Source: Escherichia coli (GTDB lineage Bacteria; Pseudomonadota; Gammaproteobacteria; Enterobacterales; Enterobacteriaceae). From it: a DNA stretch of 64,000 bases. The notes under the pieces are model-generated. The model made no database searches. It was not told the DNA's origin and was given only the letters and a program-made list of their open reading frames with translations. The position numbers and the translations under genes were made by a program. Positions 12,143 to 26,156 of the stretch are shown piece after piece. Position 1 is the first letter of the stretch. Each line of letters starts with the position of its first letter. The stretch lies in the NCBI RefSeq assembly GCF_048403405.1, contig NZ_CP183129.1, one strand, 5' to 3'.

Positions 12143-13267
12143 TTAGTCCTTAAACACCTGCGCCAGCAGATTATGGAAGTGGGCGATACCATGTTCGGAA
12201 ATTCCGCTACCGCTACTGTCGGCCATGATGCGCCCCTGGCCACGATAGCCACGCGATTTCAGCCCTTTCTGTACGCTTTCAACCAGACGTAAATCTTCCG
12301 GACGGAACACATCGCGATACCACTCAATCAGCGATTTTTGCTCGTCGGTTAACTCTTCATTGGTGAAGTAAATATCGTAGTTTTGCAGGGTAGTTTCAGA
12401 ATCCACCGGGAATTCATAAATGACCGTCATCATCCCTTTGATCGGGGTGACGTTCAGCATCGTGCACGGCCACAGCCAGAAACCGTGGAATGCCGCATCC
12501 GTGCCCTCTTCGAATTTGAAAGACTGTTCGGACGGTTTGGCGAAACCGTACTGCAGCGTCCAGTTACCGTGCATGGTGTGCCAGTAACGATCAACCTGTA
12601 CGGAGTCGGAGAAACCTGGATGCGCCGGACCACAGTGATAGCACTCGAGATAGTTATCGACAATGTTCTTCCAGTTGGCAGGCGTGCGGGTGGTAAAGCG
12701 GGCCGCCAGTTTCAGATCGTGGACTTCCGGGCAGGCTTCCAGCACTTTCGCCCCCAGACCGGGTAACTGATCTTCTACGCTGGTGGCGTTGGGGTCCATG
12801 TTGATGAAGACGAATCCGGCATATTCTTCCAGACGCACCGGAACCAGTTGCGCTTTGTCGCTATCGAAATTGGCGACGTTTTCGCAGTTACGCGCATGGG
12901 CCAGATTACCATCGAGTTTGAATGCCCAGGCGTGATACGGGCAGGTAATCACATTTTTCGCTTTCCCTTCGCCGCTCAATAACTGATGACCACGGTGCGG
13001 GCAAACGTTATAGAACGCGCGCAAAACCTTATCACGACCACGTACCAGCACGATGCTTTCGCCAATGATCTCACGCGTCACATAATCATTGGCATTCGCC
13101 AGTTCGCTGCTGTGAGCGACGCAAATCCAGCTTTTGGCGAAGACGTTCTCTTTTTCGTGTTCAAAGGCGTTCTGATCGGTATAAAAACGGGCAGGAATGG
13201 TCCACGCCTCTTGCGGGTTAGCGCAAAAATTTTCGGGTAGTACAAAGTCAGGGCTCAGATTGCTCAT
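12143..13267 (-). CDS. yeaW: carnitine monooxygenase oxygenase subunit (Rieske 2Fe-2S)
   Basis: Start taken at MSNLSPDFVLPENF… (374 aa) rather than the 414-aa track ORF; Rieske motif CPHRGH…CPYHAW. Confidence 0.9.
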   Translation of the reverse strand: MSNLSPDFVLPENFCANPQEAWTIPARFYTDQNAFEHEKENVFAKSWICVAHSSELANANDYVTREIIGESIVLVRGRDKVLRAFYNVCPHRGHQLLSGEGKAKNVITCPYHAWAFKLDGNLAHARNCENVANFDSDKAQLVPVRLEEYAGFVFINMDPNATSVEDQLPGLGAKVLEACPEVHDLKLAARFTTRTPANWKNIVDNYLECYHCGPAHPGFSDSVQVDRYWHTMHGNWTLQYGFAKPSEQSFKFEEGTDAAFHGFWLWPCTMLNVTPIKGMMTVIYEFPVDSETTLQNYDIYFTNEELTDEQKSLIEWYRDVFRPEDLRLVESVQKGLKSRGYRGQGRIMADSSGSGISEHGIAHFHNLLAQVFKD

Positions 13268-22580: not shown

Positions 22581-23402
22581 ATGATGCACAGGTTGAATCT
22601 CAATGGCTATGAACCCGACCGACACCATGAAGCCGCGGTCGCATTTTGTATTCACGCCGGAACGGATGAGTTAACCAGTCCTGTACATCAGCACCGCAAA
22701 GGACAGCTGATACTGGCGCTACATGGTGCAATTACCTGTACGGTGGAAAATGCTTTGTGGATGGTGCCACCGCAATATGCGGTTTGGATACCGGGCGGAG
22801 TGGAACATAGCAATCAAGTGACAGCTAACGCTGAACTCTGTTTTCTGTTTATCGAACCCAGCGCAGTGACAATGCCGACAACCTGTTGCACATTGAAAAT
22901 ATCGCCCTTATGCCGGGAATTAATTTTAACCCTGGCAAACAGGACGTCGACTCAGCGTGCTGAGCCGATGACCCGCAGATTAATTCAGGTCCTGTTTGAT
23001 GAACTCCCTCAGCAGCCACAACAACAGCTGCACCTACCCGTTTCTTCTCATCCTAAAATTCGCGCGATGGTGGAGATGATGGCGAAAGAGCCCGTCGAGT
23101 GGGGGTCATTGGGGCAATGGGCTCGCTTTTTTGCGATGAGTGAACGCAATCTTGCCCGACTGATAGTGAAAGAGACGGGGTTGAGTTTTCGCCAGTGGCG
23201 TCAGCAGTTACAGCTGATTATGGCGCTTCAGGGATTAGTGAAAGGCGATACTGTACAGAAAGTTGCTCATACGCTGGGGTATGATTCAACAACGGCCTTT
23301 ATTACTATGTTTAAGAAAGGCCTGGGGCAAACGCCAGGCCGATATATTGCGGGATTAACTACTGTTTCCCCACAATCAGCGAAACCAGACCCGCGGCAAT
23401 AA
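22581..23402 (+). CDS. nimR: AraC-family transcriptional regulator, known as yeaM
   Basis: 273-aa ORF; cupin-like N-terminus and C-terminal AraC HTH region. Confidence 0.88.
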
Positions 23403-23805
23403 GCGGGCCAACCGGTACGCCGCGAAACAGCGCCACGCCCAAAACAGTGCCCACCAGCAGCCCGGCGACCAGTTGCGGCTGGCTGCCCATTAACGTCACG
23501 CCGCGCCCACCTAGCCAGGAGACAATAACGCCTACTGCAATTGCCACCAGCGATTTCCAGTTCAGAAACGAGTGAATCAGGGTTGAGGGCGGTAGCGTCC
23601 CGCTGGCGATGGGGGCCATAACGCCAATCGTCAGAATGATTATCCCGATACTTAGCCCCTGTTTTTCAATCCACGGGAAAAAGGTGCTTAACGGTGTGAC
23701 GCGGACAATGATTAACACCAGAATTGAAACGGCGACAGTGGTGTTATGACTGATAAAGCCCAGCGCAGCTAACCCGAGCAGGATCAGCAAAGTGACATCA
23801 AACAT
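23359..23805 (-). CDS. yeaL: UPF0756 inner-membrane protein
   Basis: 148-aa hydrophobic ORF; convergent 3' overlap of 44 bp with nimR. Confidence 0.88.
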
Positions 23806-23974
23806 CGTGGTTTCCTTGCCAAAAAATAATAAGCCTGCTTACTTTACGCTTGCTGCAGGAAGGAAGTAGAAAATCTTTACGTTTTTTGCATAAAAAATCA
23901 GGCGAACTGTCATCAAACTGCAATTTGTGCACGCTAACAATAACGTGAAAACAGCTATCTCCCGGGGGCATACT

Positions 23975-24079
23975 ATGAACGATCAAATGTTCGTCGAGAC
24001 ACTGATTATCACGTCATCGTTTTTTGCCATTGCTGTTGTGCTGGTTTTGTCCGTTCTTCTTATCGAACGGACAGGCTAG
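23975..24079 (+). CDS. yoaI: small membrane protein (34 aa)
   Basis: ATG at 23975: [34 protein letters not shown]; below ORF-track cutoff. Confidence 0.7.
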
Positions 24080-24583
24080 TTACGCAGTGCGGCGGAAATT
24101 GACCAGTTCTGGTTGCGCAATGCGCAAATAATCCGCGGTTTTCAAAATAACGGATTTATCCAGCATGCCTGCATTGAAGGCGATTTCATCAAATCGTTCG
24201 AAGAGTAGGGGATCGGCAACCAGTTTGAGTTTTGGATGGAAGCTGAAAGGGGGGATCGCGCCGAAGACACAGCCTGTGAGTTCATCGACTTCCGCCGGGC
24301 TGGCCAACGAAGCGCGTAATCCGCCTATATGGCTGGCGAGTTGGCTCAGATCGGCCTGTTGATCGGCAGCGAGGATCGCCAGAACATGTTGATTTACACC
24401 ATTGCCTTTGACTTTACATACCAGTGCCTTAGCCCCCTGGCCTAAAGCGGTGCCACGAATTTCTGACACCGCTTCACATTTACCTACCGCTTCATGGGTA
24501 ACGACGCGGAAGTCAGCACCTTCTTGTGATAATAAAGCGATTAACCGCTGATGCGTCATGCTTCCTTTAGCCATTTCAGTCAT
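24080..24583 (-). CDS. yeaK: YbaK/ProX-family aminoacyl-tRNA deacylase
   Basis: 167-aa ORF MTEMAKGSMTHQRLIALLSQEGADFRVVTHEAVGKCEAV…. Confidence 0.88.
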   Translation of the reverse strand: MTEMAKGSMTHQRLIALLSQEGADFRVVTHEAVGKCEAVSEIRGTALGQGAKALVCKVKGNGVNQHVLAILAADQQADLSQLASHIGGLRASLASPAEVDELTGCVFGAIPPFSFHPKLKLVADPLLFERFDEIAFNAGMLDKSVILKTADYLRIAQPELVNFRRTA

Positions 24584-24625
24584 TTCATGCTCCTGAGATT
24601 ACAAGCAAACAACCACAGAAGGTTA

Positions 24626-25976
24626 TCATGAACGGCTGTTTTTGTTCTGCTTATTGACATATAAACGCTCATCGGAAGCTTTATACGCATCATGTAACGT
24701 ATCGTTTTCTTTCATCGCGTAAATACCGGAAGAGAAGCCGATCTCTTTCTGCGGCGCGATATGTTGCAGACGTTTTTCGATACGTTCAGGCAGTTGTGCT
24801 GCAATTTGCGGCGTCGAATCGACTAGAATGATGCAGAATTCATCGCCACCGAGTCGGATGGCATAATCACTTTTACGAATCGACTGTTTAATCGCCTGAG
24901 CTAATAACGTAATCGCTAAATCCCCCTCCTGATGACCGAGGGTGTCATTTATTTGCTTTAACTTGTCCATGTCAATTGCAATAAACATCACCGAAGAACC
25001 GGATTGCACCAGTTTTTGCAACCGCTGCTCCAGTTCAGGGGTTAAAATTTTGCGATTATACAGTCCTGTCATCGCATCACTAATATTTTCTCGCGACACA
25101 TTTTGGTATAAACGGAAGTGCATCCGCACCATATTCAGCAAAATTAACGCCGTCAAAATCCAGAACAGAACGCTTTTCCACGAAGACGTGATAAAGTAAA
25201 GAATATCAATGGATAACGAGACACGAATGCCGCCCGGTAAGTCATGGACGTAACTGACATACTGGAACAGATTATCTTCGCTCTGGTTGATGATAATGTC
25301 GCGCCCCGAATCGGTATCGGTTAGCGTGACATTGAGAAAACGCCAGAGGAGAGGGCGGTCATGAGTGTAAAAGATATTCCGCAGATTGTTTTTGTTAATA
25401 TCCAGCAGCACAATCCCTTTTAGCTGCCCTGCGACATATACCGGCGTCAGCAAACTCATCACGTTCTGTTTAGTACGCTGATCCTGGTAAATGCTCGATA
25501 AAACGGTACGCCCGGTAAATACCTTTTCAATATCTTTGCGATCGATGCCAATACTTCCTGACTGCAGGAAAGACCAGTTATTCATCGCAAAGTACTCAAC
25601 ATTAACCGGCTCATAAAAATAGACATAGCGGTCATTGAGATCGAGATAATAGTGAAATTTCTCGTCGGCCATCCCAAGACCTGAACCGTAATCATCCTGG
25701 TGGCGGTTGCCTTCCACTGCCTGATCAAAAGCGGGTAATAGTGCTGCAGCTTCCACAATTGTGTCGCAGTCAGTGGATGCGGTTTGTAGTGTGCCGCGTA
25801 AGCCAGGGTATTTATGGGCAGTCAGGTTTAAGCCATGGGTATTATTTGCAGACTCAAAAGCCTCGCAGATGGTGCGCCGCTGTTCTGGCGACAAGTTCAA
25901 AAATAAGGAAGGAAGATGTCAGCACAATGACACTTGCGGCGATAAAATGCCGGAGCATTCTATGGTGCAATTTCAT
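24626..25976 (-). pseudogene. dgcJ: diguanylate cyclase DgcJ, N-terminal segment out of frame with the body
   Basis: ATG at 25976 encodes the TM N-terminus MKLHHRMLRHFIAASVIVLTSSFLIFELV…, which stops at 25854; the 424-aa body (…RxxD I-site RKSD, GGDEF RLGGDEFCIIL) is in the +1 frame from 25900. Confidence 0.75.
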
Positions 25977-26156
25977 GATAAATGGCACTCCTTCGGTTAG
26001 TGAAACGAGAAAACCAGATAAAGTTCGATTGCGGCCTGGCACAGGGGCGCTAATTATACTCATCTCTGCGCCGCTGGGGAGGGGAAATTTAGGGGTAATA
26101 GTAATAAATTGTATGCAAAAGCCACGCAAAAAGCATGGCTCTGAATATTTTTGCAC

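Follow-up and report, generated by a model that had tools for sequence, protein, structure and literature searches.

yoaI of Escherichia coli, a conserved gene for a 34-residue membrane protein with a Pho-box promoter and a stop codon abutting that of yeaK

The stretch of DNA considered here, hereafter the window, comprises 64,000 nucleotides of an Escherichia coli genome (NCBI RefSeq assembly GCF_048403405.1, contig NZ_CP183129.1), and our subject is one very short gene within it. An ATG at 23975-23977 opens a frame on the plus strand that closes with a TAG at 24077-24079, and the translation of this segment returns exactly the 34 residues, followed by the stop, that an earlier sequence-only reading had quoted as the product of yoaI. 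Upstream and divergent from it lies yeaL, and the 169 nt between the two genes hold the yoaI promoter. Downstream and convergent is yeaK, which encodes a protein of 167 aa with a match to the Pfam family tRNA_edit (PF04073, 95.5 bits). The yeaK stop occupies 24080-24082 (TTA on the plus strand), with 0 bases between it and the yoaI TAG, and the claim that the two genes meet stop against stop is therefore literally correct. The features of the locus are collected in Table 1.

Table 1. Features at the yoaI locus, in coordinates of the window
Feature	Position	Strand	Remarks
yeaL (DUF441 inner-membrane protein)	23359..23805	-	divergent from yoaI
Pho box (PhoB binding site), TGTCATCAAACTGCAATT	23908..23925	+	K-12 ChIP-seq site and sequence match
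Candidate -10 hexamer AACAAT	23936..23941	+	inferred; 10 nt downstream of the Pho box
Shine-Dalgarno-like G-run GGGGG	23964..23968	+	6 nt upstream of the ATG
yoaI coding sequence	23975..24079	+	34 codons and TAG stop
Single predicted transmembrane helix	23999..24064	+	codons 9-30; from hydropathy
9-bp perfect inverted repeat, TGTCCGTTC / GAACGGACA, 8-nt loop	24048..24073		codons 25-33
Ser26 and Val27 codons	24050-24055	+	invariant in 33 sequences
Glu31 codon	24065..24067	+	residue reported essential for EnvZ binding and activation
yeaK (mischarged aminoacyl-tRNA deacylase, YbaK/tRNA_edit domain)	24080..24583	-	convergent with yoaI

The surroundings of these genes offer some observations of their own. 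On opposite strands, the 3' ends of the coding sequences of yeaL (minus) and nimR (plus) share 44 nt (23359-23402), as they also do in K-12, and this pair appears in the list of convergent excludons of MG1655. A search against Rfam returned only a sub-threshold JUMPstart match on the plus strand, antisense inside yeaL (23570-23599; 21.5 bits versus a gathering score of 35, E = 0.075), which is most likely due to chance. Beyond yeaK stands dgcJ, a diguanylate cyclase gene (24626-26116, minus strand) whose product counts 496 aa both in K-12 and in CFSAN061763, a strain nearly identical to this one. Compared with a 99.97%-identical relative, the dgcJ of the window has suffered a 140-nt deletion, with a 9-bp microhomology at the junction (25885-25893). 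Past about codon 30 the frame is shifted; what is left is MKLHHRMLRHFIAASVIVLTSSFLIFELVA and then an early stop, and the remaining open frame runs for 424 aa from an internal TTG. A 45-mer that spans this junction occurs in 0 of 5426 complete E. coli genomes; the deletion is therefore either private and pseudogenising, or an error of the assembly.

Taken alone, the yoaI ORF is unremarkable: 51 ORFs of 20 aa or longer overlap the 3 kb around it, and the mechanical ORF call at this place is a frame of 50 aa that starts from a GTG at 23927 (23927-24079). Comparison gives it a name. The peptide of the window matches the NCBIfam equivalog NF041475, "small membrane protein YoaI", with 79.8 bits (E = 1.1e-22) against a curated cut-off of 45 bits, and the alignment is end to end, with residues 1-34 lying on profile positions 1-34 of 34. 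A Pfam search with the same peptide matched no family. When 23700-24700 was searched by megablast, 5411 of the 5426 complete E. coli genomes proved to contain the locus, and yoaI occupies a median of one place per genome. In every one of the matches listed, RefSeq gives yeaL, yoaI, yeaK and dgcJ under the match; strain CFSAN061763 (100% identity across the query) and K-12 MG1655 each have a yoaI annotation on exactly the corresponding 105 nt, up against yeaK. The gene name proposed from the letters is right, as the profile match and the identity of the protein with K-12 b1788 indicate. The accompanying remark, that ORF callers would easily miss the gene, is not borne out in practice for E. coli, given this consistent RefSeq annotation and the ordinary b-number in K-12. 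Nothing in the sequence contradicts the identification. Thus, 23975-24079 is very probably yoaI, a known and conserved enterobacterial small-protein gene, and its annotation here is the correct annotation of a catalogued gene that was already known.

The YoaI protein of K-12 (b1788) is identical to the peptide of the window over all 34 residues, and the neighbours yeaL and yeaK, the abutting stops and the layout of the Pho-box promoter are all the same. Over the 314 nt compared there are five nucleotide differences. Three of them (23992, 24040 and 24073) are in the coding sequence and all are synonymous third-position changes, one (23972) falls between the Shine-Dalgarno element and the ATG, and one is the replacement of C by A at 23922, which weakens the second half-site of the Pho box in the window. 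The functional evidence on YoaI discussed below (translation, localisation, PhoB, EnvZ) comes from work on K-12 and concerns an identical protein.

The 34 residues of YoaI begin with a brief acidic stretch (D3, E8), continue as one transmembrane helix and end in a tail of four residues, ERTG. The mean Kyte-Doolittle value is 2.69 for residues 9-30, while the two ends have -0.40 and -2.27, and the best 19-residue window (residues 10-28) has a mean of 2.72. A hydrophobic core of 19-22 residues with a mean of 2.7 bears out the membrane character that had been read from the sequence. The C-terminus probably faces the cytoplasm, because this is the predicted orientation and because in K-12 a C-terminal YoaI-GFP fusion fluoresces at the cell periphery. 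Ser26, Val27 and Glu31, all present in the window peptide, are all invariant in a published alignment of 57 species. Among the 33 sequences compared here, position 31 is Glu in 32 and Asp in one Lelliottia strain.

Is a frame of this size maintained as a protein? An orthologue scan with one genome per species recovered 32 loci that span Escherichia, Citrobacter, Enterobacter, Lelliottia, Pseudescherichia and Huaxiibacter (at least 6 genera), and in all 32 the frame opens with an ATG at the aligned position and is 32-35 codons long. By the Nei-Gojobori method, dN/dS for codons 1-32 is 0.14 in the yoaI frame; the other five frames give 1.25, 3.2, 0.70, 0.32 and 5.4. The variable columns follow a three-base periodicity, with 20 of 32 at the first codon position, 9 at the second and 28 at the third. 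Purifying selection on the yoaI peptide is strong, and it is this comparative evidence (the 32 loci, dN/dS, the codon-position pattern and the synonymous changes relative to K-12) that raises yoaI above chance.

The gene order is conserved as well. A convergent yeaK is found downstream in 28 of the 32 loci and yeaL upstream in 24, and the order yeaL-yoaI-yeaK is kept in Escherichia, Citrobacter, and most of the Enterobacter and Lelliottia loci. When 1.84 billion cluster representatives were searched exhaustively with HMMER, 23 relatives came up, and the block conserved among them is the 34-residue core. The N-terminal extensions of some database relatives are unconserved and look like miscalled starts.

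The promoter points to the Pho regulon. Fitzgerald et al. 2023 reported TGTCATCAAACTGCCATT as the PhoB ChIP-seq site upstream of K-12 yoaI, and the TGTCATCAAACTGCAATT of the window differs from it by the C to A change at 23922. A TGTCAT-N5-TGTCAT-like box occurs 60-74 nt upstream of the ATG in 33 of 33 loci, and is unique at its score in 31 of them. In the window, TGTCATCAAACTGCAAT at 23908-23924 matches 10 of the 12 core positions, with AACAAT 10 nt further downstream; Enterobacter and Citrobacter have a TAAAAC or TATCAA element at the same offset. In Pho promoters, the Pho box replaces the -35 element and lies about 10 bp upstream of the -10. The yoaI promoter appears to be built in this way, with the Pho box in place of the -35 element, a layout that fits the direct PhoB targets of the Pho regulon, and AACAAT would be its -10 element, ahead of a putative transcription start. 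A generic sigma-70 scan of 23600-24700 found no promoter, as expected because an activator-dependent (PhoB) promoter has no -35. With regard to translation, a GGGG, GAGG or AGGG run stands in most orthologous loci at the same offset as the G-run of the window. The folding of the 5' region (23945-24010) revealed no unusual structure (z = +0.97) and therefore gives no sign of a leader or riboswitch behind the Mg2+ effect described below.

The Pho box of the window is a minority allele. Its second half-site reads TGCAAT, versus TGCCAT in K-12 and TGTCAT in the consensus, and its 10 core matches out of 12 make it the weakest of the Escherichia loci, the others having 11. Counted by an exact 45-mer, the allele of the window is found in 327 of 5426 genomes and that of K-12 in 4203 of 5426. 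Because of the extra mismatch, induction by PhoB could be weaker in this strain.

At the other end of the gene, the touching stops are specific to Escherichia. The gap between yoaI and yeaK is 0 nt in all seven Escherichia-lineage loci of the scan, in K-12 and in the window; elsewhere, it is 1-9 nt in Citrobacter and 5-30 nt in Enterobacter and Lelliottia. A terminator scan at the junction in the window found no terminator-like site, and the folding of the plus strand downstream of the yoaI stop is unremarkable (z = -0.04). Since the stops touch and a canonical terminator is absent, the yoaI and yeaK transcripts would have to overlap in this strain. In agreement with convergent excludons, gene pairs whose transcripts overlap at their 3' ends, the yeaK-yoaI pair has a zero intergenic distance, no canonical terminator and an entry in the MG1655 list, where it is one of 165 convergent pairs that ExcludonFinder detects in 50% or more of the 58 transcriptomes. 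A functional excludon is defined by mutually exclusive expression and RNase III processing, and in this sense yeaK-yoaI is at most a putative one. The main YoaI paper (Vellappan et al. 2025) makes no mention of yeaK or of antisense transcription.

In Enterobacter mori, where the gap is about 21 nt, the spacer between the two genes contains a canonical intrinsic terminator for yeaK (1598-1621 of locus L006, minus strand). It consists of a 10-bp stem, AAGGCTGAC...GTCAGCCTT, followed by TTCTTTCC; the stem covers the last yoaI codon and the stop, and the U-tract is antisense to yoaI codons 31-33. The spacer that holds this terminator is lost in Escherichia (gap 0), and that of E. hormaechei (locus L034) did not pass the scan used for Enterobacter mori.

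A further element is inside the 3' end of yoaI, where the two arms of the inverted repeat (24048-24056 and 24065-24073) form a hairpin in which the codons for the invariant S26-V27 are base-paired to the E31-R32 codons. In the plus-strand RNA it grows to 15 pairs, including the stop codon, with a folding energy of -19.0 kcal/mol, and its stability is above that of 99.4% (plus strand) and 99.5% (minus strand) of 3000 synonymous recodings. A U-tract is absent on either side. Only E. coli K-12, Escherichia sp. MOD1 and E. albertii keep 8-9 of the 9 pairs; the hairpin is eroded in the remaining Escherichia lineages and missing outside the genus, and no compensatory changes were found across the loci compared. 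Given this restriction to E. coli and its near relatives and the lack of compensatory changes, we claim no function for it.

While the coding sequence, the selection on its frame, the helix, the Pho box and the synteny derive from the present analysis, the translation of yoaI, the localisation of its product, the dependence on PhoB and the effect on EnvZ are known from the literature. Fitzgerald et al. 2023 measured yoaI RNA at 12,266 in the wild type and at 28 in a phoB deletion strain, and found the occupancy of RNA polymerase and sigma-70 at yoaI to be PhoB-dependent. In O157:H7, yoaI (Z2828) goes up 5.7-fold under phosphate starvation. Vellappan et al. 2025 (bioRxiv 10.1101/2024.09.13.612970; Sci Signal) found that Ribo-RET signals initiation at the annotated start, with a peak that low Mg2+ raises about 12-fold, and detected chromosomally encoded YoaI-SPA in the membrane fraction, in larger amounts as Mg2+ falls. 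This fusion itself changes the junction with yeaK. Their P_yoaI reporter was PhoB-dependent and PhoQ-independent. At low Mg2+ the protein rises and yoaI transcription is unchanged, from which these authors deduced a post-transcriptional control.

These reports coincide with what the sequence-only reading had suggested by way of verification. It had called for an epitope-tagged chromosomal fusion, ribosome profiling and promoter mapping, and each of them was already in print for K-12: the first as YoaI-SPA in membranes at low Mg2+, the second as the Ribo-RET start-site peak, and the third as the P_yoaI reporter together with PhoB ChIP-seq and RNA-seq. The same reading held that the gene would have to be abandoned if no translation were seen under any condition; the published detection in K-12 shows the opposite.

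As for the function, the support for an interaction of YoaI with EnvZ consists of two-hybrid data and reporters. The two-hybrid signal was obtained with EnvZ and with neither PhoQ nor PhoR. An omrB reporter goes down 1.4-2-fold in a yoaI deletion, a modest effect, and up more than 7-fold on overexpression, in an EnvZ-dependent manner, and the ompC and ompF reporters shift reciprocally. The substitutions E31A and E31Q abolish both the EnvZ two-hybrid signal and the activation of omrB, and leave the membrane levels of the protein unaffected. Later reviews and papers take YoaI as an EnvZ modulator. Overexpression also prolongs the lag phase, and because this effect requires PhoQ but not EnvZ, the activation of EnvZ is probably not the whole function of YoaI. 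In addition, a CRISPRi screen recorded a fitness effect for yoaI, namely sensitivity, under CCCP.

How secure is the reading of this locus as a gene for a small membrane protein? That the frame arose by chance in the yeaL-yeaK intergenic region and has no coding function might be argued from the abundance of short ORFs in these 3 kb and from the lack of a Pfam family for the peptide. Such an origin would not leave a dN/dS as low as 0.14 in the yoaI frame only, nor a length and a start conserved in 32 loci of at least 6 genera, nor a match to a curated equivalog HMM, and it disagrees with the published Ribo-RET and SPA-tag detection; the conservation pattern and the detection of the protein have already refuted it, and its probability is practically nil. 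The same negligible weight goes to the proposal that the real product is the 50-aa frame from the GTG at 23927, although this is the longest frame among the ORFs listed and several database entries do have N-terminal extensions. The GTG comes right after the Pho box and upstream of the presumed -10, hence upstream of any PhoB-dependent transcription start. Moreover, while the extensions of the homologues differ in sequence and length, hardly any variation affects the MND start, and it is before the ATG that the G-run Shine-Dalgarno element stands and at the annotated start that the Ribo-RET peak was published.

Other doubts accept the transcript and concern its product. yoaI might act mainly at the RNA level, its transcript running antisense into yeaK and vice versa as in a convergent excludon, with the peptide being secondary. 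The 0 nt between the stops, the missing canonical terminator, the listing of the pair in at least 50% of the 58 MG1655 transcriptomes and the stable hairpin in the 3' end of yoaI would suit this idea, but the peptide is under strong purifying selection, YoaI expressed from a plasmid, at a distance from yeaK, loses its function through E31A or E31Q, and the 0-nt gap is Escherichia-specific whereas the peptide is conserved far more widely. We consider it quite improbable as the main role, and RNA-level and peptide roles could coexist. It is very improbable, in turn, that YoaI is a hydrophobic peptide of the type I toxin kind with the 3' region of yeaK as its antisense partner. Its small size, its single hydrophobic helix, the longer lag on overexpression and the overlapping antisense transcript recall such systems; yet yoaI belongs to the core genome, in one copy and in conserved synteny, and keeps its Pho box, unlike the mobile or multi-copy toxin loci, and neither a dedicated antisense small RNA nor an Rfam family was found. 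Furthermore, the growth effect is a PhoQ-dependent lag and not killing, and the deletion has a signalling phenotype.

With yoaI taken as the gene of a small inner-membrane protein, the chain of events that is best supported, from the promoter to the sensor kinase, is the one published for K-12. Under phosphate limitation, PhoB, the response regulator of PhoR-PhoB, would bind the Pho box and recruit RNA polymerase, raising yoaI RNA several hundred-fold. The product would insert into the inner membrane, leaving the ERTG tail in the cytoplasm as predicted. At low Mg2+, the level of YoaI would increase with no change in transcription and independently of PhoQ. Glu31 may then contact EnvZ, and the output of EnvZ-OmpR would rise. 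Taken together, the control by PhoB, the response to Mg2+ and the stimulation of EnvZ suggest that YoaI acts as a connector, which would pass phosphate and Mg2+ stress signals to the osmotic/envelope two-component system.

Such a role has parallels among other small modulators of sensor kinases. SafA, which acts on PhoQ, is like YoaI a small inner-membrane protein that is induced by one two-component system and acts on the sensor kinase of another. MzrA stimulates EnvZ, as YoaI does, but it has 127 aa against 34, and YoaI is proposed to work via Glu31 in its four-residue cytoplasmic tail and not via a periplasmic domain. MgrB is an inhibitor (of PhoQ), whereas YoaI is an activator. YoaI has no sequence relationship to MgrB, SafA or MzrA.

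One more question is raised by the junction with yeaK. Could the touching stops and the hairpin set up an antisense control of the excludon type, in which the yeaK and yoaI transcripts pair, in either direction, and could this underlie the PhoQ-independent rise of YoaI at low Mg2+ that occurs independently of transcription? We regard this as unlikely, with a small chance of being correct. If it were true, antisense control would tie yeaK, a tRNA-editing gene, to phosphate and Mg2+ signalling.

Whatever the answer, the locus carries in this strain the same protein as in K-12, and as published by Vellappan et al. 2025, YoaI is an example of how a very small membrane protein can link PhoR-PhoB and low Mg2+ to EnvZ-OmpR.
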